A DNA stretch of 32,000 nucleotides from Nostoc punctiforme PCC 73102 (GCF_000020025.1 NC_010628.1:180001-212000), one strand, 5' to 3'; positions 8,993 to 23,157 are shown, counted from the stretch's first letter. Program-made: numbers and translations. The notes: generated from the letters alone by a model not told the origin.

Positions 8993-10330
8993 ATGCTCCT
9001 AGATTTAGAAAGATTTTATCAGGCTTGCAATCCGAGCAGACCTCTAATCATAGGAAACGCCAGCGATCGCAGGTACTATATTGATTTTGCTGCGGTACGG
9101 GGTGGCAAAATCATCGAAGCTTTGCAGCGCACGATCGCTCGAATATCACCGGATGAACCAACTTGTCAGCTATTTACAGGACATCTCGGCTGTGGAAAAT
9201 CAACGGAATTGTTGCGGTTGAAAGCTGAATTGGAAGCGCAGCAATTTCATGTAGTTTACTTTGAGTCTACCCATGTCTTAGAAATGGCAGATGTGGATGT
9301 GACTGATATTTTGTTGGCGATCGCAGGCCAAGTAAGTGAAAGCCTAGAAGCTATGAAAATCAGGCTCAAATCTACTTACTTTACCAAGTTGTTTGGTGAA
9401 ATTGTGGATTTTCTGCAAACACCAATTGACCTGGGGGTAGAAGCAGAGTTGTCTGTGGGAATTGCCAAAATTACAGCCAAAACTAAAGAAAGTCCCCAAT
9501 TGCGGCGGCGGTTAAGAGATTATTTAGAACCACGAACAGCAAATATTTTACAGTCAATTAATCAAGAATTGCTAGAACGTGCCACCAAGGAACTGAAAAC
9601 TAAAGGTAAAAAAGGACTGGTGGTTATTGTTGATAACCTGGATAGAGTTGCAATTCGACCTTTGCCATCGGGGCGATCGCTGCCAGAATACTTATTTATT
9701 CAGCGTGGTGAACAGTTACGCAAACTAAATTGCCATGTAGTCTACACAATTCCTTTAGCCCTGACTTTCTCCAACGATAGCGCCGAACTTCAACATCGTT
9801 TGGGGGGAGGTGTCGCACCAAAAATGTTACCGATGATACCTGTACGTCTGCGCTCTGGAGAGATTTTTCCTCAAGGGTTAGCCATGTTGCGGCAAATGGT
9901 TCTAGCTAGAGCTTTCCCAGACATTTTACCTAGCGATCGGTTAGGCTTAATTACAGAGGTGTTTGATAGTTTGGAAACCTTAGATCGGTTGTGCTTGATT
10001 AGTGGTGGTCATGTCCGTGACTTGCTAGGGTTACTGTTTGACTGTCTGCGAGAACAAGATCCACCTTTTGAGCGGGAGTGTGTTGATTTGGTGATTCAAA
10101 GACAGCGAGATTACCGAGCCAACGCTATCGATCCTCAAGAGTGGGAATTAATCTTTCAGGTGGTGCAACAGCAACGGGTGAGAGGTGATATAGAATACCA
10201 CACTTTATTGCGAAGTTTATTTGTATTTGAATACCGAGATCATCAGGGAGCTTGGTTTGCCGTCAACCCAGTTTTAGCAGAGACGGAAAAATTTAAATCA
10301 TGGTTGAACGACACCCACAAGCAGATATAA
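8993..10330 (+). CDS. P-loop ATPase (AAA+/STAND-like, no sensor repeats), partner of the downstream giant NTPase
   Basis: Walker A GHLGCGKST (nt 9179-9205). Walker B-like LVVIVDNLD (about nt 9617-9643). The ORF overlaps the next ORF by 31 nt. Confidence 0.75.
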   Translation: MLLDLERFYQACNPSRPLIIGNASDRRYYIDFAAVRGGKIIEALQRTIARISPDEPTCQLFTGHLGCGKSTELLRLKAELEAQQFHVVYFESTHVLEMADVDVTDILLAIAGQVSESLEAMKIRLKSTYFTKLFGEIVDFLQTPIDLGVEAELSVGIAKITAKTKESPQLRRRLRDYLEPRTANILQSINQELLERATKELKTKGKKGLVVIVDNLDRVAIRPLPSGRSLPEYLFIQRGEQLRKLNCHVVYTIPLALTFSNDSAELQHRLGGGVAPKMLPMIPVRLRSGEIFPQGLAMLRQMVLARAFPDILPSDRLGLITEVFDSLETLDRLCLISGGHVRDLLGLLFDCLREQDPPFERECVDLVIQRQRDYRANAIDPQEWELIFQVVQQQRVRGDIEYHTLLRSLFVFEYRDHQGAWFAVNPVLAETEKFKSWLNDTHKQI

Positions 10331-13300
10331 GAGCGGCTAATGAGCGGGCTTTACGGAGTTTGGGGAGAGCAATTGCCCTTTCTAGCGGTCAATTTTCTCT
10401 GGTTTTGGTGTGCTGCAATTATCGAGTTTTACAAGAACTTATGCTGCAAAGACTCGAAGAACTCTCTTCAGGAGTACACCATATTCAAAAGGTAATTCTG
10501 CCGCATAATGCTAGAAGTCTTTACACAAGTATTCATTTACAACTGGTAACTGAAGAGAATCCGCCATCAGCGTTGATGATTTTGGGTTTGGAGTCAGTAG
10601 ATGGAATCGACGATTTACTAAGGTCTATCAATCATATTCGTGATGAATTTCGCAAACGCCACCCATTCCCGATGATTTTGTGGGTGAATGAAGAAGTGTT
10701 GCAAAAGGTAGTCCGTTTAGCACCAGATTTTGCGAGTTGGGCGGCTACACCGATTCGGTTTGAGATGACAACTCAATCATTGCGGCAATTTTTGCAACAG
10801 GAAACGGATTCTTTATTTGCCACGGTGTTACCAAGCGATGCTGGACAACACCAACCTCCTCAAGTTGCAAAGCATTATTTCACTGTGGAGCAAGTCTGGA
10901 AAAATAGCTATGAACTCCACTTTGCTATTGGAGAGTTGCACGATCGTGGTATTACCTTAGAGCCAGAATTACACGCTAGTTTAGAGTTTGTTTTTGGTCT
11001 AGATAATTATATTAGCGATCGCATCAATACAGCTTTAAGCCATTTTCAGCAAAGCTTGCAAGTTTGGCAAAAGTTGGAAGAAATAGGGGGAGCAGGAGAG
11101 CGGGGGAGCGGGGGAGCAGGGGAGCAGGGGGATGAGAGGGTATTTTCTTCGTCTACACCTCCTAATCGCCCATCTCCTCTACTTCTGCGACAGGGAGTCT
11201 TGCTGTTTTATATTGGGCTGTGTTATTGCCGTTTAGCAGAGCAAAATCAAATAGAAAACCGTCGTCATTGGTACACAGCTAAATTTTATTTTCAGCAATG
11301 TTTGAATGTTTTACAGGTGGCTGGGCGTTTAGATATAGTTGCTGGGTTTATTAGTCAACTCGCTGAAGTTTTGCAATATCTGCAAGAGTGGGAAGAATTG
11401 CAGACTGTTGCCCAAAAGTCTCTGGAGTTGCATCAAACTTATGGTAGTCAAATTCAATTAGCTTGTGACTACGGTTTTCTGGCACAAGTGGCTGTGCAGC
11501 AGTCACGGTGGATACAGGCGAGTATATTAGCGCATGTATCGCTGCTAAAATTAGGTGAAGCGCAAAAGCACAACGATCCTTATAACTGCTTATTTCCATT
11601 ACTGCTGGCGCAAATTTACTATTTAGTGTTGGCGAAAGCACAGAGAAATTTAGGTGAGCTAGTAATCGCTCATGAATACTTAGAAAAAGCTACAAAAGAA
11701 CTGCCAGCAGCTTTAGAAAGCAGTGCCCATCAATACGATGCCCATCGTTATATTCGCTTATTGCGGACACTGCGATCGCTATACTTTGAAGAAGGTCGCT
11801 ATTTGGAAGCCTATTACATTCGCCAGAAACGGCGTTCTGTTGAGCAGCAGTACGGCTTTCGGGCTTTTATTGGTGCAGGACGCTTGCAACCCCAAAGACA
11901 GGCGACAAACCCTGCATTGATGGCACCTTCTGGGAGTAGTAGCGTTGCTTTAGAAATTGCTGCTTCTGGTCGAGAGCGTGATATTAATAACTTAATTGGG
12001 AGAATTAGCCGCGCCGATCAAAAGCTGACGGTAATTCACGGTCAATCAGGTGTAGGTAAAAGTTCTACCGTAACGGCAGGTTTAGTTCCAGCACTGCAAA
12101 ATCGAGCCATTGGCGATCAAATAGCTGTGCCTGTAGTACTGCAAGTTTACACCGATTGGGCGCGGGAGTTAGAGAAATCTTTAAGTCAGGCGATGTCTAG
12201 TGACGCATCCCTTGCCGTCTACGCTGAGATTAAGCTAGAAGCAAACATTGAAGCGGCGGAGGTTTTGCCCTACTCTCCTACACCGATCACCATCGTCAGA
12301 ATTTTACAACAACTCCAACAAAATGCTGATAACCACTTGATCACAGTTTTAATTTTTGACCAGTTTGAAGAATTTTTCTTTGGTTATAGCGATCGCAAGC
12401 AAAAGCAAGAATTTGATAAATTTATTAGTGATTGTCTGAATATCCCCTTTGTCAAAGTTATCCTTTCCTTGCGAGAAGATTACTTACATCGTTTGTTAGA
12501 TTTTAAACATCTCTCCGCACTGGAAGCGATTAATAATAATATTCTCGACAAGCATATTCGTTACCAGTTGAATAACTTTTCACCAGAATATGCTAAAGCA
12601 ATTATCCAAAAATTGACCGAGCGATCGCAGTTTAATTTAGAGCCTGCTTTAATCGATGCCTTAATCGAAGATTTATCCACAGAATTTGGAGAAGTCCGCC
12701 CAATTGAATTGCAAGTTGTGGGAGCGCAAATTCAAGATGAACGCATTACTACTCTAGAAGAATATCAGCCATATAGACCCAACAAACTTATCGAGCGATA
12801 TCTTAAAGAACTGATTAAAGACTGCGGCCCAGAAAATGAACGAGCCGCCTTACTCGTCTTATACTTATTAACAGATGAAAGTAACAACCGACCTTTTAAA
12901 ACTCGTGCTGAATTAGCGGCACAGCTAGCAGAATTAGAAGATGCCAGCAAATTAGAGTTAGTATTAGACATTTTAGTAAGCTCCGGTTTGGTAGTACTAT
13001 TCCCTGATGTACCAGAACGCTATCAACTAATTCACGATTATTTAGTAGACTTAATTCGCTACCTACAGCAACAAGAATCAAGTTTACAGGTACAACTAAA
13101 TCAGTTGCGCCATAAAGTAGAACAAAGTAAAGCTGAAATTGAGCGGCTTAAAAGCGAACTTAGCCAAAAAAAGCAGCGTTCCACATTAGCAGATTCTCAT
13201 CCCCAACAGGGATTAGATTTATTAACAGAATTGCGAGAATTACACAAGCGAGAAGAATTGAGTCAGTTACAAATTGAGCAATTACGAGCTGAATTAAAAG

Positions 13301-15450
13301 AAAAAGAATTAACAGCTAAACTTGCAGAAAGTCAAAAGAAACAAAGACTTAGCGAAGCTCAATTAAATCGTTCGTTGAAAATTGCCCTGACTGCTTCTGT
13401 TCTTGCCATATTGGGATTAAGTGTTTCCATAGTAACAGCAGTAGATAGTGAAATTAAAACCCTTAGTGCATCCAGTGAAGCCCTCTTTGCCTCACAAAAA
13501 GGTATTGATTCTTTAAAAGAAGGTTTAAGAGCGGGAAGAAAATTACAACAAATAGTTTGGGTAGATTCCTACACAAGAGAGCAAGTACAGACGGCGCTCT
13601 ATCAAGCTGTTTCTGGGTTAAGAGAATATAACCGCTTGGAGGGGCATTTATCTGGAGTAAATAATGCTACATTCAGCCCTGACCGTTCTTTAATTGCTTC
13701 AGCTAGTGCGGATACTACAATTAAACTTTGGCTTCCTGATGGTAGCTTGTTCAAAACCCTATCTGGGCATGAAGATGTAGTGAATAGCGTCAGTTTCAGC
13801 CCCGATGGTCAAATTATTGCTTCCGCTAGTCAAGACAAAACGGTGAAACTTTGGAGTCGAGAGGGTGTATTACTTGTTACTCTATTAGGGCATCAGGGTG
13901 TCGTGAATAGTGTCAGTTTTAGCCCAGATGGACAGATTATTGCTTCTGCAAGTACAGACAAGACAGTAAAACTGTGGAGTCGGGATGGTAAACTGCTCAA
14001 AACCTTGCCAGGACATGATGGTGCAGTTTTGAGTGTCGCTTGGTCAACTGATGGACAAACCATTGCTTCAGGGAGTGCAGACAAGACAGTAAAATTGTGG
14101 AGTCGGGATGGGAAGCTGCTCAAAACCTTGCAGGGACATGAGGATGCAGTTAAAAGTGTAGCTTGGTCAACCGATGGACAGACTATTGCTTCAGCTAGTT
14201 TAGACCAGACAATCAAACTGTGGAATCTAGAGGGGAAATTACTGCGAACCCTATCAGGGCATAGTGCTGGAGTTACCAGCGTCAGTTTTAGCCGTGATGG
14301 TAATACCATCGCTTCTGCAAGTACCGACGAGACAATCAAACTTTGGAGTTTTGAAGGTGTGCTGCTAGGAACCCTGAAAGGACATAATAATTGGGTTAAC
14401 AGTGTCAGTTTCAGCCCAGATGGTCGCACCCTAGCTTCTGCAAGTCGGGACAAAACTATTAAACTCTGGCATTGGGACGATGTGTTATTGCGAAAACCCA
14501 AAGCCGATAATGATGACTGGATAACTAGCATCAGTTTCAGCCCAGACGATCGCACCTTAGCAGCAGGGAGTCGAGACAAAACTATAAAACTATTCAGCCG
14601 CGAAGGTAAATTACTCCGAATACTTACAGGGCATCAAGGTCAAGTTTGGGGGGTTAGTTTCAGTCCAGATGGTCAAGCGATCGCTTCGGCTAGTAAAGAT
14701 CAAACAGTAAAGCTTTGGGGTGCTGACGGTAAACTGCTCAATACCTTACAGGGTCATAATAGTACCGTCTTGAGTGTAGCTTGGTCGCCTAATAGTCAAA
14801 TAATTGCCTCGGCTAGTAAAGATCAAACAGTAAAGCTTTGGAGTCGAGATGGTAAACTGCTCAACACCTTGCAAGGACATAAAGATGCAGTGAATTGGGT
14901 AAGTTTTAGCCCAGATGGTAAATTGCTAGCCTCAGCCAGTGATGACAAAACCGTAAAAATCTGGAGTTTAGATGGTAAATTGCTATATACCTTAATTGGT
15001 CATAGCCGCCGCGTAAATGGGGTTTCTTGGTCGCCTGATAGTCAAGTAATTGCTTCAGTTAGTATTGATAGCACAGTCCAACTTTGGAGCCGGGACGGTG
15101 GTTTACTAAATACTCTCACAGGGGATGGTGATAGTTTTATTAGTGTGAGTTTTAGCCCCGATGGTAAGACTTTAGCAGCTAGCAGTGATGACAAAATAAG
15201 AATTTGGAACCGAGAAGGGACATTACTGATCGCTTTAAAAGGCTATGAAGCTGAGTTAACCAGCGTCAGTTTCAGTCCTGACGGTAAGACTTTGGCTGCG
15301 GGTAGTGGTAACGGCACAGTGATTTTCCAGAATTTGGCAGATATCCAACTGGAAAAATTACTGGCACGGGGTTGTTATTTGCTCTATGATTATTTGCAGA
15401 CTAACCAGAAAGTGATGAAAGGCGATCGCGCCTTGTGTTCTAGTAGGTGA
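10300..15450 (+). CDS. Giant STAND-class (NACHT/nSTAND-like) NTPase with TPR-like region, coiled coil, one TM helix and 14 WD40 repeats
   Basis: 1716 aa. The N-terminal roughly 160 aa have an unassigned alpha/beta-looking pattern, followed by a helical TPR-like stretch. Walker A is GQSGVGKSS (nt 12040-12066). Walker B is VLIFDQFEEFF (nt 12346-12378). A heptad-rich K/E/Q/L segment runs about nt 13075-13370. A hydrophobic helix IALTASVLAILGLSVSIVTAV lies at about nt 13381-13443. Then come 14 repeats of the GH...SFSPDG..IASAS.DKTVKLW type. Confidence 0.85.
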   Translation: MVERHPQADIRAANERALRSLGRAIALSSGQFSLVLVCCNYRVLQELMLQRLEELSSGVHHIQKVILPHNARSLYTSIHLQLVTEENPPSALMILGLESVDGIDDLLRSINHIRDEFRKRHPFPMILWVNEEVLQKVVRLAPDFASWAATPIRFEMTTQSLRQFLQQETDSLFATVLPSDAGQHQPPQVAKHYFTVEQVWKNSYELHFAIGELHDRGITLEPELHASLEFVFGLDNYISDRINTALSHFQQSLQVWQKLEEIGGAGERGSGGAGEQGDERVFSSSTPPNRPSPLLLRQGVLLFYIGLCYCRLAEQNQIENRRHWYTAKFYFQQCLNVLQVAGRLDIVAGFISQLAEVLQYLQEWEELQTVAQKSLELHQTYGSQIQLACDYGFLAQVAVQQSRWIQASILAHVSLLKLGEAQKHNDPYNCLFPLLLAQIYYLVLAKAQRNLGELVIAHEYLEKATKELPAALESSAHQYDAHRYIRLLRTLRSLYFEEGRYLEAYYIRQKRRSVEQQYGFRAFIGAGRLQPQRQATNPALMAPSGSSSVALEIAASGRERDINNLIGRISRADQKLTVIHGQSGVGKSSTVTAGLVPALQNRAIGDQIAVPVVLQVYTDWARELEKSLSQAMSSDASLAVYAEIKLEANIEAAEVLPYSPTPITIVRILQQLQQNADNHLITVLIFDQFEEFFFGYSDRKQKQEFDKFISDCLNIPFVKVILSLREDYLHRLLDFKHLSALEAINNNILDKHIRYQLNNFSPEYAKAIIQKLTERSQFNLEPALIDALIEDLSTEFGEVRPIELQVVGAQIQDERITTLEEYQPYRPNKLIERYLKELIKDCGPENERAALLVLYLLTDESNNRPFKTRAELAAQLAELEDASKLELVLDILVSSGLVVLFPDVPERYQLIHDYLVDLIRYLQQQESSLQVQLNQLRHKVEQSKAEIERLKSELSQKKQRSTLADSHPQQGLDLLTELRELHKREELSQLQIEQLRAELKEKELTAKLAESQKKQRLSEAQLNRSLKIALTASVLAILGLSVSIVTAVDSEIKTLSASSEALFASQKGIDSLKEGLRAGRKLQQIVWVDSYTREQVQTALYQAVSGLREYNRLEGHLSGVNNATFSPDRSLIASASADTTIKLWLPDGSLFKTLSGHEDVVNSVSFSPDGQIIASASQDKTVKLWSREGVLLVTLLGHQGVVNSVSFSPDGQIIASASTDKTVKLWSRDGKLLKTLPGHDGAVLSVAWSTDGQTIASGSADKTVKLWSRDGKLLKTLQGHEDAVKSVAWSTDGQTIASASLDQTIKLWNLEGKLLRTLSGHSAGVTSVSFSRDGNTIASASTDETIKLWSFEGVLLGTLKGHNNWVNSVSFSPDGRTLASASRDKTIKLWHWDDVLLRKPKADNDDWITSISFSPDDRTLAAGSRDKTIKLFSREGKLLRILTGHQGQVWGVSFSPDGQAIASASKDQTVKLWGADGKLLNTLQGHNSTVLSVAWSPNSQIIASASKDQTVKLWSRDGKLLNTLQGHKDAVNWVSFSPDGKLLASASDDKTVKIWSLDGKLLYTLIGHSRRVNGVSWSPDSQVIASVSIDSTVQLWSRDGGLLNTLTGDGDSFISVSFSPDGKTLAASSDDKIRIWNREGTLLIALKGYEAELTSVSFSPDGKTLAAGSGNGTVIFQNLADIQLEKLLARGCYLLYDYLQTNQKVMKGDRALCSSR
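13636..15336 (+). repeat. Intragenic tandem array of 14 WD40-coding units (about 123 nt each)
   Basis: 41-aa periodicity. Long near-identical nucleotide tracts occur between units, e.g. gacaagacagtaaaa(c/t)tgtggagtcgggatgg at about 13960 and about 14083, and gctagtaaagatcaaacagtaaagctttgg at about 14690 and about 14813. Confidence 0.9.
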
Positions 15451-15564
15451 TAGCGTATTTATTTATCAAATTTACTTTTTAGTTTTACTTTTGCCTTGTT
15501 CTACTAATATGTTTACTAGTTCAATTTAATGTCTACTATTTAAAAACTAACTTTACAACATTCG

Positions 15565-16587
15565 CTAATTTACATTCATACTTTCTTCTAAAATTTTACT
15601 TATAAGTTGACCGCGAACATTACGTCCTTTTCTACTAGCAGTACCTTGATGTGTATAATAATAATATTGAGCAAACATATTTTTAGATACATCTTCTTTT
15701 TTATTTATATGTAGTTCTTCTTCTAAAGATTTTAAAGCATGAGCTAAAGTTTGCTCTTGAGGTAAATAACCATACTTGTTTTTAATTTTGATTAATTCAA
15801 CCATTAAAGTAAACAAACTAGACTTCTTTATCCACAAACTATCTGGAGGGAGATTAGACTCAATAATTAATTTAGATGCTTCGTTAAAATTATTAGACAT
15901 TAACTCTTTATTTGGATATTCATTATTATATTTTTCTACATAGGTCTTTACCTCTTTATCACTAGTAAAATAACCACCTTCTTCTATTGTTGACATAATT
16001 AGCAATACATATTCCAGGTCTTTCATACGAGAAAATTCACCTTCACTAAAGACCTCTAAACTAGTAAAAAGAGCATTATTTTCTAGAATATTTTTAGCAG
16101 TTGTGATGAACTCCCCTTCATATAATGAGTTGCTAATTTCTATTGCATTTAGTGCGTATTGTACAGAGTTGATTCTCTTAAAAACTTCTCTAATTTCACT
16201 TTCAGGAATTCTTCCTAAATCTCTAACGACAACTGTATAATCAAAAAAATCTGTTTTTTCTTGTTTAGACAATTTTTCAAACTTACTGATATTTTTGATA
16301 GTGAATTCTGGTGATGCTGTGACATATTGGTAGATTGTACTTAATCTTTGTTGACCATCTACGACAAGTGTTTTTGATGTTTGAATATCAAGATCGATTT
16401 CACCATCAGCTAGATATATTTCAGGGAAAGGAAGTTTTAATAAAATTGTTTCTATAAATTTTTCTTTATGTGCATTATTCCATACAAGCTTTCTTTGAAA
16501 AGATGGAGCAAGTATTAAAGTACCAGTTTTCATCATGTTGAATAAATCTAAAACTTTTTTATTAGTTGCAATACCATTTTTGCTCAT
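15565..16587 (-). CDS. Stand-alone DUF262 (ParB/Srx-fold, GmrS-like) protein lacking a DUF1524 nuclease domain
   Basis: FQRKLVW and VVDGQQRLSTIY motifs, followed by FKRINSVQYALNAIE. These are hallmarks of the DUF262 N-terminal domain of GmrSD-type enzymes. No H-N-H/DUF1524-like motif appears in the C-terminal half. ATG at 16587 has GGAGG 9 nt upstream. An alternative ATG lies at 16596. Confidence 0.8.
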   Translation of the reverse strand: MSKNGIATNKKVLDLFNMMKTGTLILAPSFQRKLVWNNAHKEKFIETILLKLPFPEIYLADGEIDLDIQTSKTLVVDGQQRLSTIYQYVTASPEFTIKNISKFEKLSKQEKTDFFDYTVVVRDLGRIPESEIREVFKRINSVQYALNAIEISNSLYEGEFITTAKNILENNALFTSLEVFSEGEFSRMKDLEYVLLIMSTIEEGGYFTSDKEVKTYVEKYNNEYPNKELMSNNFNEASKLIIESNLPPDSLWIKKSSLFTLMVELIKIKNKYGYLPQEQTLAHALKSLEEELHINKKEDVSKNMFAQYYYYTHQGTASRKGRNVRGQLISKILEESMNVN

Positions 16588-16588
16588 T

Positions 16589-17200
16589 TTAAACATCCTC
16601 CTGTCTCAGTTTTTTGATATTCTGCATGTGATATTTTTCAAAGAGAGCGGAATTATAATAAATACCCCCTGCTATTTTTTGGGGTGTATATTTATAAGAG
16701 ATTGATTTAAAATACTCAAACCACTCATTTGTACGAGAATATTTAAATGGAAATAAATCTGGTCTTAGCCATCCTTTAAAAAAATATTTTAAAAATTTTT
16801 TATACCTTTGTTCTTCTTTATCAGTTCTAGATACTAAACTTATGTCGAAATCATATAATTCTGACCAAAATTTTTCAAAAATTTCTCTAGATATAATAGC
16901 TATATCTATATCTGATTCTTCAGAGAACAAATTCCATAATTTACTTGGAGCTATACTAAATCCTAATTTAGCTGAACCAACCATCAATACACATTCTGGT
17001 CTTTCTTCAAAATAAGTAGCAATTTCATGCTTGAGGTCAAAATATTTACCTTCATCATCTTTAAAAACATAAGGTGTACCATGTATTATATATTTTTGAA
17101 CAATTAATTTCTCTGTTAGAGAGTAATCACGTAATGCTGCTTTGAACATATCAATCTTTTGATTAATATGGCTTTGGTCAATTATTAAAGTCTGCCACAT
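16589..17200 (-). CDS. Putative minimal Pol-beta-superfamily nucleotidyltransferase
   Basis: 203 aa. VLMVGSAKLGFSIAPSKLWNLFSEESDIDIAII fits the G-S ... D-x-D pattern (G75-S76, D97, D99) of Pol-beta-type NTases such as the MNT, CD-NTase and AbiEii/MenT classes. The stop TAA (16589-16591) is 1 nt from ATG 16587 of the DUF262 gene. The fold assignment rests on motif only. Confidence 0.5.
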   Translation of the reverse strand: MWQTLIIDQSHINQKIDMFKAALRDYSLTEKLIVQKYIIHGTPYVFKDDEGKYFDLKHEIATYFEERPECVLMVGSAKLGFSIAPSKLWNLFSEESDIDIAIISREIFEKFWSELYDFDISLVSRTDKEEQRYKKFLKYFFKGWLRPDLFPFKYSRTNEWFEYFKSISYKYTPQKIAGGIYYNSALFEKYHMQNIKKLRQEDV

Positions 17201-17414
17201 AGAGTATTTTATTTAATCAACATAACTTGAACCAAGTTTTTATAGCTAAAAATACATATACTAAATGCTAAAAATTACTAAGTCAATAAGTGTATATACC
17301 TGAATAAATAGTGATTTGATTTTTTAGCTTTGTTAGTCCGAACAAAAGACAACAGAAGTTACAAACTGTTAATAGTCACAGAATACAATCGGATAATTAA
17401 AATAGGTATTTTCA

Positions 17415-17463
17415 CAAAAAGGCGATCGCACTACATTACCAATTGCGATCAGATCGCCTTTTG
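17415..17463. other. GC-containing hairpin with flanking A/T runs (bidirectional terminator-like) at the right edge of the AT-rich cassette
   Basis: aaaaggcgatc (17418-17428) pairs with gatcgcctttt (17451-17461). The stem contains a HIP1 site. It lies between two divergent gene starts, where a terminator is not expected. Confidence 0.45.
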
Positions 17464-17583
17464 TTAACCAACCTCAAGCCGTTGTTTCAAAACTACGGCA
17501 GAAAAATCAGCCAGGACTCATAGACAAAGCTGTACATCTTGGTAGCATTGAGTGAAGTACCCGTCAGCAAGGGAGCGAGGGCG

Positions 17584-18207
17584 ATGTATGCAAGCGTCAC
17601 ACAACCACTGACTTTTGAAGAGTTTCTTGCCTGGGATGATGGTTCAGGCAGAGAGTTTGAGCTATTAGATGGGATTCCCGTGCCATTATCAGAACCAAAT
17701 GCAAATCATGAGGATTTGATCCAGCGACTGTGTGCCTACTTAGAAAATCACTACCAAGAAAATGACCTGTCTTATGTGCCGCGCCAGTCCAAGCAGGTTC
17801 GGCTCAAAACAGCATTAGGAGAAAAGGAAAAAAGCCGGAAAGCAGATATTGTCATATTTGCAAGAGTTGAATGGCAGAGGATGAGAACTATCTCTAGTTC
17901 TGCTGCTGCATATATTCCACCACCGGGAATCATTGAAGTCGTTAGCAACAACTGGAAGGACGACTATCTGACAAAACTTGCTGAATATGAAGACTTGGGC
18001 GTTTTCGAGTACATCATTGTAGACTATGCTGCTTTTGGTGACATTCGGTTCATTGGCTTTCCTAAGCAGCCAACCATTACAATCTACCAACTTGAAGGTG
18101 CAGAGTATTTACCTCCGAAGGTTTTTCGAGGGCAGGATCTAATTCATTCTAAATTGTTTCCGAACATTCCCTTAACTGCTGAACAAATTTTTGCAATGAG
18201 TCGCTGA
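17584..18207 (+). CDS. Uma2-family (DUF820) putative restriction-endonuclease-like protein
   Basis: FEEFLAWDDGSGREFELLDGIPV..., ADIVIF, IEVVSNNWKDDYLTKLAEYEDLGVFEYIIVD. This is the pattern of the Uma2 family, which is abundant in cyanobacteria. ATG at 17584 is preferred over the TTG at 17539. Confidence 0.75.
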   Translation: MYASVTQPLTFEEFLAWDDGSGREFELLDGIPVPLSEPNANHEDLIQRLCAYLENHYQENDLSYVPRQSKQVRLKTALGEKEKSRKADIVIFARVEWQRMRTISSSAAAYIPPPGIIEVVSNNWKDDYLTKLAEYEDLGVFEYIIVDYAAFGDIRFIGFPKQPTITIYQLEGAEYLPPKVFRGQDLIHSKLFPNIPLTAEQIFAMSR

Positions 18208-21678: not shown

Positions 21679-23157
21679 ATGAGCGATCGCTTTGATATAA
21701 ATCATGTTTACAATATTCTTGGGTTAAAACCAGGTGCATCTGTTGATGAGGTCAAGCAAGCTTACCGTCAGATGGCTAAAACTTGGCATCCAGATTGTTT
21801 TTTCGAACCGCAGCAAAAGTTAGAAGCGGAAGAGAAAATCAAAGAAATCAATCAAGCCTATGCAAGGTTAAAGTCTTATCAGCCGGATGAGACAAATCAA
21901 TCTGCTTCCACTTCTATCAAAATTGATTTCACTCCATCTAATGCTGAAAGTTTCTACAAACTAGGGATAGAGAAAGCTCAAAAAGAAAAATATACTGAAG
22001 CAATTGAAGACTTTACCCAAGCGATTCGTCTCAACCCCAACTACTTTGAAGCTTACAAATACCGAGGGCTTGCTTGCTCGAAACTAGGATATGAAAATAG
22101 AGCCGAGTCAGATTTTAGAAATTCTATACAACTGGAACTGAAACAGAAAAAAGCAGCACCCAAACCTACATCACCACCACCAAAGCCAGCAACGCCGCCA
22201 CCACCCAAACCTACATCACCACCGCCAAAGCCAGCAACACCGCCACCACCTAAATCAGAGTCTCAACCTTCACCCTGGAAATGTGTACACACCCTGACTC
22301 ATCTCAACTGGGTTTTTACAACTGCAATCAGTCCAGATGGTAAAACTTTAGCTAGTGGAAGTAGTGATAATACGATCAAAATTTGGCATCTCGACACAGG
22401 GAAATTACTACATACTCTCACTAGTCATACAAAATGGGTAAGATGCCTAGCCTTTAGCCCAGATAGCCAAACTCTAGTTAGTGGCAGTGATGATAGCACC
22501 CTAATGATTTGGCAAGTGTCTACAGGTAAATTACTCAAGACACTCAAAGTACATTCAACCCCAGTTTTTTCTGTAATCATTAGTCCAGATGGTCAAACTA
22601 TCCTGAGTGGCGGTACAGACAGTACTATCAAGATTTCCCATATAGAGATGGGACAATTACTGCAAGTCCTCAAAGGTCATTCTGGCTTAGTTTACTCCCT
22701 TGCTATTTGCCCAAAACAACAGATTTTTGTAAGTGGCGGTGCGGATAATACCATTAAGCTGTGGAATTTGAAGAGTAACAAACTGCTGCAAACTCTCAAC
22801 GGACATTCAGGCTGGGTGATGTGTGTCGCCATTAGCCCTGATGGAAAAATTTTAGCTAGTAGCAGTTATGACCAAACTATCAAGCTATGGAATATCAATA
22901 CAGGTAAGGTAATTAACACTCTTGCCGGACATTGCAGCTATGTTTGTGCGATCGCTTTTAGTCCCGTTGGTCAGTATCTTGCTAGTGGTAGTGCAGATCA
23001 CAGTGTAAAACTATGGGATGTTAACACAGGACAAGAACTTTACACTTTGAATAACCATTCTGATTGGGTTAACTCCGTCACTTTCAGTCCTGATAGCAAA
23101 ACCCTAGCTAGTGGTAGTCGGGATATGACAATTAAGCTTTGGCAATGCGATATCTAA
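21679..23157 (+). CDS. J-domain, TPR, Pro-rich linker and 7 WD40 repeats in one fusion protein
   Basis: The HPD J-domain and TPRs are paralogous to the upstream gene. The linker is a duplicated KPTSPPPKPATPPPP. Seven WD repeats follow (…SPDGKTLASGSSDNTIKIW…). Confidence 0.85.
   Translation: MSDRFDINHVYNILGLKPGASVDEVKQAYRQMAKTWHPDCFFEPQQKLEAEEKIKEINQAYARLKSYQPDETNQSASTSIKIDFTPSNAESFYKLGIEKAQKEKYTEAIEDFTQAIRLNPNYFEAYKYRGLACSKLGYENRAESDFRNSIQLELKQKKAAPKPTSPPPKPATPPPPKPTSPPPKPATPPPPKSESQPSPWKCVHTLTHLNWVFTTAISPDGKTLASGSSDNTIKIWHLDTGKLLHTLTSHTKWVRCLAFSPDSQTLVSGSDDSTLMIWQVSTGKLLKTLKVHSTPVFSVIISPDGQTILSGGTDSTIKISHIEMGQLLQVLKGHSGLVYSLAICPKQQIFVSGGADNTIKLWNLKSNKLLQTLNGHSGWVMCVAISPDGKILASSSYDQTIKLWNINTGKVINTLAGHCSYVCAIAFSPVGQYLASGSADHSVKLWDVNTGQELYTLNNHSDWVNSVTFSPDSKTLASGSRDMTIKLWQCDI
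22159..22248 (+). repeat. Perfectly phased 45-nt tandem duplication encoding the Pro-rich linker
   Basis: 22159-22203 and 22204-22248 differ at only 2 positions. Confidence 0.85.

Follow-up and report, generated by a model that had tools for sequence, protein, structure and literature searches.

STAND/NLR-like proteins are abundant in multicellular cyanobacteria, mostly without a known output. The nSTAND1 NTPases (PF20703) were defined in predicted conflict systems of multicellular bacteria (Kaur, Iyer, Burroughs, Aravind 2021, PMC8195603), and a two-gene operon is described in which an active and an inactive STAND NTPase, proposed by Kaur et al. to form a hetero-multimer, are accompanied by GT4/HEPN effectors (PMC8195603, PMC7159879). 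Moreover, iSTAND and iSTAND2 are components of the MoxR-vWA ternary systems (PMC8195603, PMC7159879), and in the EAD-coupled systems the same small adaptor is carried by the core component and by separate effectors, i.e., the coupling is homotypic (Kaur et al. 2020/2021). In this work, we analyzed a 32,000-nucleotide (nt) stretch of the genome of Nostoc punctiforme PCC 73102 (NC_010628.1:180001-212000; hereinafter called the window, to which all coordinates given without a locus name refer). Two adjacent genes of its plus strand, called as open reading frames (ORFs), are the subject of this analysis, i.e., gene A (8993..10330), encoding an ATPase of 445 amino acids (aa), and gene B (10300..15450), encoding a 1716-aa, predicted membrane-spanning nSTAND1 NTPase. 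We give about an even chance to the reading that this module belongs to a two-gene system which is widespread in cyanobacteria but undescribed, composed of a membrane nSTAND1 switch and a partner AAA+ ATPase.

The protein encoded by gene B is built, in order, of an inactive AAA+-like N-terminal domain (hereinafter the N-domain), a helical/TPR region, the nSTAND1 module, a coiled-coil-like stretch, a hydrophobic (transmembrane) helix, and 14 WD40 repeats. It shares with the nSTAND1 conflict systems (PMC8195603) the NTPase itself, a C-terminal repeat sensor, the enrichment in filamentous cyanobacteria, and a constant N-terminal module at the position of the adaptor (EAD). However, this N-terminal module is not Death-like or an EAD but AAA+-like and inactive, its active AAA+ partner is encoded separately, and B has a predicted transmembrane helix between the NTPase and the sensor. 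Proteins of the STAND/NLR-like kind are already known, and the novelty lies here in a putative membrane-spanning nSTAND1 sensor, an inactive-AAA+ N-domain, and an obligate ORC/Cdc6-like partner ATPase. The pair is found repeatedly in filamentous cyanobacteria and looks like an undescribed wiring of an NLR-like sensor to its output. It suggests that nSTAND1 giants lacking an effector signal via a dedicated partner ATPase, onto which an effector such as TIR can itself be fused. The domain anatomy, the fold classes, the linkage of both genes, the matching of their copy numbers, and their conservation and selection are findings of the analysis. Within the literature searched, including the papers defining nSTAND1 and iSTAND, no description of the A-B pair and no characterised orthologue were found, and nothing in the core-gene list of filamentous cyanobacteria (PMC2821919) matched A-B. 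SepT (All2460), considered as a possibly related protein, turned out to be unrelated.

Genes A and B occur together far beyond chance. As pointed out in the original prediction, the two ORFs overlap by 31 nt in different frames (10300..10330, plus strand), with the ATG of B at 10300 located inside the 3' end of A, which suggests translational coupling of A and B via the overlapping frames. The scan of species-representative genomes yielded 335 loci with A relatives, the best 80 of which, all from Nostoc or close relatives, were examined, and the wider breadth was taken from contig look-ups and plasmid records. In all 74 Nostoc loci with enough downstream sequence, the B orthologue starts 25 or 31 nt before the stop codon of A; 73 of these 74 orthologues are complete (1706-1761 aa) and one runs off its contig. 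An A-family gene located directly ahead of an N-domain/nSTAND1 gene was also found in Microcoleus (locus L083; 459 and 921 aa), as a second paralogue in Nostoc (L085; 460 and 1960 aa), in Roseofilum (L086; 463 and 1562 aa), in Hormoscilla (L087; 470 and 1704 aa), in two further chromosomal loci with fragmented genes (L088 and L089), as well as on plasmids of the unicellular species Acaryochloris marina, of Nostoc ATCC 53789, and of Calothrix NIES-4101. In the paralogues, the genes overlap or are separated by gaps, from a few nt up to about 210 nt. A hidden Markov model scan of the collected loci revealed that 88 of the 90 A genes are followed by an N-domain gene and that 89 of the 90 N-domain genes are preceded by A; the exceptions were an N-domain-SepF fusion, a fragmentary gene, and the leading member of a tandem pair of A genes. 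The 445-aa ATPase is, hence, a near-obligate neighbour of the N-domain/nSTAND1 family, and the conserved neighbourhood, for which the original prediction had asked, holds in 74/74 Nostoc loci and in other lineages. The constant core of the B-like proteins comprises the N-domain, the TPR region, and nSTAND1, and the variable C-terminus consists mostly of WD40 repeats, otherwise of TPR arrays, CHASE2, or a second NACHT. In locus L089 (2856-9674), the A-B paralogue adjoins divergent ftsQ (POTRA_1) and ftsZ genes, and its B gene is split into three ORFs, probably by assembly frameshifts.

According to its AlphaFold2 (AF2) model (pLDDT 84.4, pTM 0.86), A is predicted to be an ORC/Cdc6-STAND-type AAA+ ATPase, with the nucleotide-binding domain (NBD), i.e., an AAA+ alpha/beta core, the helical lid, and the C-terminal winged helix typical of this fold. 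The top Foldseek matches of the model were Cdc6/Orc1 (2qby_A, E 3.9e-6), ORC subunits, archaeal SSO1545, Apaf-1 (3sfz), CED-4 (2a5y), RADAR RdrA, and BrxC, and 2fna and 1fnn were also among the matches. The motifs quoted in the original prediction were found on the plus strand at 9179..9205 (Walker A GHLGCGKST, aa 63-71) and 9620..9643 (Walker B VVIVDNLD, aa 210-217), the latter with a second acidic residue, D217, as in the STAND-like hhhhDxxD pattern. In an alignment of 30 members, including paralogues (mean column identity 66%), no variation was seen in Walker A, in Walker B (hhhhDNLDR), or in the SGGHxR motif; the invariant residues include G63, H64, G66, C67, G68, K69, S70, and T71 of Walker A and D214, L216, D217, and R218 of Walker B. 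Judging by these residues, A appears catalytically intact. The same alignment showed invariant E383, W384, Y414, D416, W421, N425, and P426 in the winged-helix-like C-terminal module (10133..10327, plus strand; aa ~381-445), modelled as helices 381-393 and 398-406 followed by a hairpin of strands 411-416 and 419-424.

In Pfam, A scored under the cutoffs of ATPase_2, AAA_16, and nSTAND5 and matched KAP_NTPase (PF07693) with 31.4 bits (cutoff 20), covering aa 39-220 only. Transmembrane helices inserted in the P-loop domain are the defining feature of the KAP family. Although A passes the profile threshold, it has no such helices, as its maximal 19-residue Kyte-Doolittle mean (KD19) of 1.19 indicates no transmembrane segment and the insert between Walker A and Walker B consists, in the AF2 model, of soluble helices; A was therefore rejected as a canonical KAP NTPase. 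Its resemblance to the KAP/ORC-Cdc6-like defence ATPases (RADAR RdrA, BREX BrxC) lies in this KAP match and in the similarity of its model to RdrA and BrxC, and neither an RdrB deaminase gene nor BREX genes were found nearby in the window. No sequence relatives of A were detected in PDB, nothing specific in NCBIfam matched A or B, and in PADLOC A gave a weak match to PDC-S20 (26.9 bits, P-loop only). A is 97-99% identical to many Nostoc proteins and 83-91% identical to its orthologues from Cylindrospermum, Anabaena, Tolypothrix, Scytonema, and Sphaerospermopsis. The family counts over 3500 unannotated sequences, whose clusters bear only the generic name "P-loop NTPase fold protein". A distant, non-cyanobacterial A-like protein (27% identity over 79% of A), without a Pfam match of its own, is encoded on plasmid pACPOL1 of Acidisarcina polymorpha (L093 8202-9263), where it is surrounded by CHAT, TPR, and LRR genes.

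The N-domain of B (10300..10794, plus strand; aa 1-165) is a Walker-A-less AAA+-like alpha/beta domain, which we propose as the docking site of A. The original prediction had described this segment as lacking Walker A and containing the hydrophobic strands FSLVLVCC, ALMILGLE, and PMILWVNE, which indeed lie within aa 32-131. No Pfam family matched aa 1-200 of B even at E<=1, and no sequence relatives of the N-domain were detected in PDB. With a profile built from 34 copies, sequences grouped at 50% identity gave 2291 clusters at E<=1e-3, of which 623 reached E<=1e-30. Two unannotated families are delineated in this work, namely that of the N-domain (at least 2291 clusters) and that of A. The N-domain nearly always starts at residue 1 of proteins of 1300-2060 aa, and the N-terminus of B aligns from Met1 across the family. 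The AF2 model of the domain (pLDDT 86.7) is a beta-alpha sandwich, matched by Foldseek with the AAA+ cores of ORC1/Cdc6, RFC, IstB, TnsC, and Hda at E values reaching 1.7e-4 and TMq of 0.41-0.59, and the position of Walker A is occupied by CNY, with C39 and N40 invariant. Since an AAA+-like fold coincides with CNY at the Walker A position, the N-domain is, as modelled, an inactive AAA+-like domain and no enzyme. It was rejected as a recent duplicate of the NBD of A or of B, because hhalign comparisons among A, the N-domain, and the nSTAND1 NBD detected no relationship outside the P-loop. The domain occurs almost only N-terminally on TPR-nSTAND1 proteins, the single exception being a protein of a cyanobacterial metagenome-assembled genome (P0213; L084 2152-3138), in which an N-domain 46% identical to aa 10-153 of B is fused to SepF, the only such fusion in the data set. 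In another protein (P0267, 1932 aa), the N-domain/nSTAND1 part is apparently fused to a full-length PEP carboxylase (PF00311, aa 972-1932), which may be an artefact of gene calling or assembly.

The N-domain may be likened, by description and not by an iSTAND profile, to iSTAND/iSTAND2 as an inactive AAA+/STAND-like core, and the A-B pair resembles the active plus inactive STAND operon and the iSTAND systems in combining a dead STAND/AAA+ module with an active NTPase. In contrast to them, the inactive module is here a 165-aa N-domain on a protein with its own active nSTAND1, and the effector, when present, is located on the active partner (as in an A-TIR fusion, see below), not on the inactive one. 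Unlike in the MoxR-vWA ternary systems (VMAP/iSTAND), neither MoxR nor vWA genes were found among the neighbours of A and B in the window. Compared with the EAD-coupled systems, the coupling of the N-domain with the A family appears heterotypic, not homotypic.

Downstream of the N-domain there is a helical/TPR-like region (10795..11964, plus strand; aa 166-555). The original prediction had assumed about 350 aa of TPR-like helices, and for these a single TPR_12 match (aa ~352-408, 32.5 bits) was the sole support. Low-complexity inserts of this region, from which most of the length variation among the B orthologues results, include Gly/Glu/Arg-rich ones at aa 262-281 (11083-11142) and aa ~179. 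The nSTAND1 module (11968..13119, plus strand; aa 557-940) matched PF20703 with 111.6 bits (cutoff 27.1) over profile positions 18-368 of 379, in agreement with the expectation of an nSTAND/NACHT-like NTPase. Its predicted motifs GQSGVGKSS (Walker A, 12040-12066, plus strand; aa 581-589) and LIFDQFEEFF (Walker B, 12349-12378, plus strand; aa 684-693), the latter with an extra acidic residue downstream, are intact. The profile match, both Walker motifs, and the C-terminal repeat sensor together argue for B as a bona fide nSTAND1-type STAND NTPase with a repeat sensor. A K/E/Q/L-rich stalk follows (13075..13374, plus strand; aa ~926-1025), previously called a long coiled coil. Its composition (over 105 aa, E/K/Q/L make up 59%, and Pro and Gly occur once each) and weak Pfam and PADLOC matches to coiled-coil families fit that description; the crude 3.5-residue (heptad) periodicity is weak, and the stretch is called coiled-coil-like here.

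The C-terminal part of B comprises, as foreseen, a single hydrophobic helix and 14 WD40 repeats. The latter (13642..15363, plus strand) gave 14 stretches of Pfam WD40 (E 3e-160) with a 41-aa period and are expected to form two 7-bladed propellers. A STAND NTPase followed by two WD40 propellers resembles the Apaf-1/CED-4 apoptosome and bacterial Apaf-1-like STAND-WD40 proteins, and the fold of A matches both Apaf-1 and CED-4. However, A-B has no CARD or caspase effector, belongs to the nSTAND1 clade and not to AP-ATPases, and has a predicted membrane span before the propellers, as well as an obligate partner ATPase. This span is the helix IALTASVLAILGLSVSIVTAV (13381..13443, plus strand; aa 1028-1048), composed of 21 uninterrupted apolar residues (KD19 2.24) and basic on its N-terminal side. 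In 40 family representatives with one helix and WD40 repeats, K+R within 15 residues of the helix averaged 4.35 on the side of the NTPase and 1.95 on that of the WD40 repeats; the NTPase side had more of them in 37 representatives, the same number in 3, and fewer in none. By the positive-inside rule, the basic flank of a transmembrane helix faces the cytoplasm. This bias therefore points to a cytoplasmic NTPase and places the WD40 array, as predicted from the sequences, outside the cytoplasm (periplasm or thylakoid lumen). The predicted N-in/C-out topology, with an outside sensor and a cytoplasmic switch, is similar to that of single-pass receptors (PknB-type kinases, ToxR/CadC, CHASE2), but the cytoplasmic part is a STAND NTPase with an AAA+ partner, not a kinase, cyclase, or DNA-binding domain.

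The manner in which A is connected with B was suggested by multi-copy operons and fusions. Plasmid4 of Calothrix NIES-4101 (L092 9001-16508) carries A1, then A2 fused C-terminally to a TIR_2 domain (E 1.5e-33), and then a B-like gene whose product has two N-domains in tandem (at aa 4-166 and aa 232-392) ahead of the NTPase; genes encoding GUN4, TPR, and another WD-repeat protein are also present in this region. In the orthologous, tatC-linked locus of Goleter (L095 2395-11582), there are likewise two A modules, together with a B orthologue with two N-domains. One module, 57% identical to A, makes up the C-terminal half of a STAND-TPR protein of 956 aa, and the other is a free 445-aa A (84% identical). 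Upstream of the free A, this locus encodes, besides the 956-aa protein, a 430-aa AAA_16/NACHT-like ATPase. As two A modules correspond to two N-domains in both operons, we infer 1:1 docking of A on the N-domain, and these data suggest that each A module would dock on one N-domain. Plasmid p057_J of Nostoc sp. C057 (L094 3958-9131) encodes a system of VMAP (VMAP-M1 and VMAP-C), MoxR, and vWA-type proteins, and the C-terminal effector slot of the vWA-type protein is occupied by a distantly related A/KAP-like module, 24% identical across 83% of A; the next genes are one of the FGE family and one coding for HEAT repeats. The TIR fusion and this effector slot suggest that A may be the output-carrying arm, which agrees with the partner ATPase being named in the original prediction among the possible outputs. 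The Pfam, PADLOC, and NCBIfam scans bore out its statement that no enzymatic effector is recognisable in the window copy.

The linkage of the genes, their matching copy numbers, and the fusions speak for the mechanism that we propose, the inferred parts of which are the membrane topology, the contact between A and the N-domain, the oligomerisation, the ligand, and the output. A ligand bound at the extracytoplasmic sensor would trigger nucleotide-dependent oligomerisation of nSTAND1. The clustered N-domains would then each dock one A protomer, in an inactive/active AAA+ heterotypic pair as in ORC/Cdc6 or clamp loaders, and this docking would assemble or activate A as the output arm, with A and B being made in a fixed ratio through their overlapping frames. 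In relatives, the effector (e.g., TIR) would be carried by A, and in the window copy the output would be the ATPase of A itself with its winged-helix module, acting on a conserved target. A bolder version, in which A and the N-domain represent a new heterotypic adaptor principle that links giant membrane-spanning STAND receptors, with sensors in the periplasm or lumen, to their outputs, and the window copy is a domesticated receptor of a conserved extracytoplasmic cue (e.g., of the periplasm shared along the filament) and not of a phage protein, seems to us rather doubtful, at about one chance in a handful or slightly better. If true, the pair would constitute a bacterial transmembrane NLR-like receptor pathway. 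A sensor outside the cytoplasm, as predicted, would take the STAND/NLR paradigm beyond the cytosol, to transmembrane sensing.

Several points weigh against this proposal. The pairing statistics are dominated by one orthologue group and correspond to about 11 independent contexts, and the N-domain-SepF fusion has no A neighbour. The copy-number matching comes from two multi-copy operons only, and profile comparison finds no relationship in sequence of the N-domain to A or to the nSTAND1 NBD. The topology is heuristic, and the export of a 660-aa propeller via a signal-anchor located 1030 residues from the N-terminus would be unusual. Finally, the B-like proteins of Microcoleus (L083) and Goleter (L095) stop just past the transmembrane helix, without WD40 repeats, and the propeller is therefore dispensable in some lineages. 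In L083 (8001-12129), the 921-aa B-like gene is followed, on the opposite strand, by an IS605-type TnpB gene, and the sensor may have been lost through this insertion.

The mode of evolution of the locus bears on what the window copy senses. For the dN/dS (nonsynonymous to synonymous substitution rate) analysis, performed by the Nei-Gojobori method, each orthologue was compared with the window sequence. The values were 0.055 for A, 0.067 for TatC, 0.106 for the tocopherol cyclase, and 0.112 for the whole B, within which they ranged from 0.070 (nSTAND1) through 0.106 (stalk with the transmembrane helix), 0.114 (WD40), and 0.126 (N-domain) up to 0.152 in the TPR region, the least constrained part of B. 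The median identity to the window was 96.2% for A, 95.8% for TatC, 90.4% for the dehydrogenase, and 92.6% for the tocopherol cyclase, and among the domains of B it reached from 87.9% (TPR) up to 93.8% (nSTAND1). The synteny with the upstream tatC is kept in about 50 loci, and it also extends to two Nostocales genomes that are more distant. Judged by these sequence comparisons, the Nostoc copy is under strong purifying selection, and its evolution resembles that of core genes and not that of typical phage-defence genes. Within the WD40 unit, positions 5, 7, and 23 vary between the repeats (the consensus residue is present in 3, 6, and 2 of 14, respectively) and are near-invariant among 73 orthologues, with minor-residue fractions of 0.038, 0.023, and 0.035; the variation among orthologues is concentrated at unit positions 3-4, 13-17, and 31-33. 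The number of repeats is stable and 41-aa indels are rare. The low dN/dS of the array, together with the conservation of repeat-specific residues, is in keeping with a conserved ligand and not with an arms race. The Nostocaceae-wide orthologue most likely senses a conserved ligand, i.e., a self/envelope cue or an invariant foreign molecule, and a fast-evolving phage protein is less likely to be this ligand.

These results would also suit a non-immune signalling system domesticated in Nostocales, in which B is a transmembrane STAND receptor of an envelope, periplasmic, or filament cue and A is its ATP-dependent transducer. Besides the core-gene conservation with synteny and the purifying selection acting on every domain, it is consistent with the topology resembling single-pass receptors, with the CHASE2 domains found at the same position in paralogues, with the housekeeping genes surrounding the L085 and L086 paralogues, and with ftsQ-ftsZ beside one paralogue and SepF on one N-domain. 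MalT and AfsR, STAND proteins which act as regulators, provide a precedent. On the other hand, no phenotype of an orthologue was found in the literature searched, SepF on an N-domain and ftsQ/Z beside a paralogue were each seen only once, and the wider family bears hallmarks of conflict systems (TIR fusion, plasmids, toxin-antitoxin neighbours). We regard this explanation as tentative, with the chances clearly leaning against it, and nevertheless as the best placed of the alternatives to the two-gene sensor-ATPase system. It is possible that a core-like orthologue inside a mobile, expanded family represents an immune-type module adopted for housekeeping, and such domestication would bear on the evolution of NLR-like systems alongside multicellularity.

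Slightly less probable, in our opinion, is a classical anti-phage or abortive-infection NLR-like system of the Avs type, in which the WD40 array would sense a phage protein, B would oligomerise, and A would kill or arrest the cell, e.g., by ATP depletion or by acting on DNA. The module does follow the tripartite logic of Avs/bNACHT proteins (N-terminal output, central STAND switch, C-terminal sensor), and predicted conflict systems are the context in which nSTAND1 was defined (PMC8195603). The family has expanded hugely, with swappable C-terminal sensors, and its plasmid paralogues adjoin HicAB, RelE, integrases, and a NACHT gene. The A-TIR fusion, the A-like module in the VMAP-MoxR-vWA system, the CHAT and TPR genes near the distant A-like gene of Acidisarcina, and the weak PDC-S20 match of A point in the same direction. 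However, unlike in Avs/bNACHT, no nuclease, protease, TIR, or SIR2 effector is fused to B, and the window copy, which is inherited vertically and kept under purifying selection, is neither patchy nor mobile, being syntenic near tatC and apparently universal in Nostoc. The dN/dS of A (0.055) is below that of TatC (0.067), and the WD40 array is not diversifying. Neither A nor B matched the Avs or NLR models of PADLOC or any other of its systems (B gave only a WD40-driven match to HEAT-ARM_XIII and a weak one to LmuB), and no homologue of A was found in 50,697 phage records. Moreover, the sensor is predicted to be extracytoplasmic, away from the site of phage protein synthesis. The conflict or defence role, which the original prediction had ascribed to the window copy, is thus not established.

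It was further considered that the hydrophobic helix does not span the membrane, being buried or serving oligomerisation or as a peripheral anchor, and that B is wholly cytoplasmic, like Apaf-1. Canonical WD40 propellers are typically cytoplasmic, B has no signal peptide and a very long N-terminal cytoplasmic part, and about 40% of the long family representatives are without any segment over the hydrophobicity threshold used, exactly one such helix after the NTPase having been found in 49 of 85. This arrangement is nonetheless unlikely. In all 73 aligned orthologues the helix is kept (KD 2.10-2.41), being the least variable segment of B. Its 21 uninterrupted apolar residues and the charge bias of the same sign in 37/40 representatives also argue for a membrane span. 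A comparable helix, always preceded by an R/K-rich sequence, is present in the Microcoleus, Nostoc, Roseofilum, and Hormoscilla paralogues (L083, L085, L086, and L087), and some paralogues end after it in a tail-anchored-like manner. In others, the position after the helix is taken by CHASE2, which is an extracytoplasmic sensor domain.

The notion that a single gene was broken into A and B by a sequencing error or by a frameshift, which a 31-nt overlap in different frames could mimic and which the original prediction had named as a possible objection, is practically without chance and was rejected, as two complete ORFs with only two overlap lengths recur in 74 Nostoc loci, separate genes are found in unrelated lineages and on plasmids, B aligns from Met1, and none among about 230 N-domain proteins carries a full A.

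Regarding the surroundings of the two-gene module, A is preceded in the window by genes encoding Nramp, TatC, and a short-chain dehydrogenase, and B is followed, in order, by a GmrSD_N-like gene pair, a Uma2 endonuclease gene, a tocopherol cyclase gene, and a gene for a DnaJ-TPR-WD40 protein. The GmrSD_N-like pair (15565-17200, minus strand) consists of a 343-aa GmrSD_N (DUF262)-like gene and an overlapping 203-aa ORF without a Pfam match. It lies in a stretch of low GC content (29-34%), has orthologues in just 4 related Nostoc loci, and looks like a restriction-type gene newly inserted directly 3' of B; its presence in 4 loci only led to its rejection as a component of the system. The Uma2-family gene (17539-18207) was rejected as a third component, since its orthologue is present downstream in 30 of 66 Nostoc loci only (absent from 36) and the distance between the stop codon of B and this gene (the interval 15451-17538 in the window) ranges in these 30 loci from 147 to 4136 nt. 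As both the gene pair and the Uma2 gene are patchy and the spacing is variable, the 3' flank of B can be regarded as an insertion hot spot located outside the system. The last of the neighbours (21679-23157, plus strand) encodes a 492-aa protein with a J-domain (HPD motif), TPR, a proline-rich PPPKP(T/A) linker, and 7 WD40 repeats, which appears unrelated to the A-B module.

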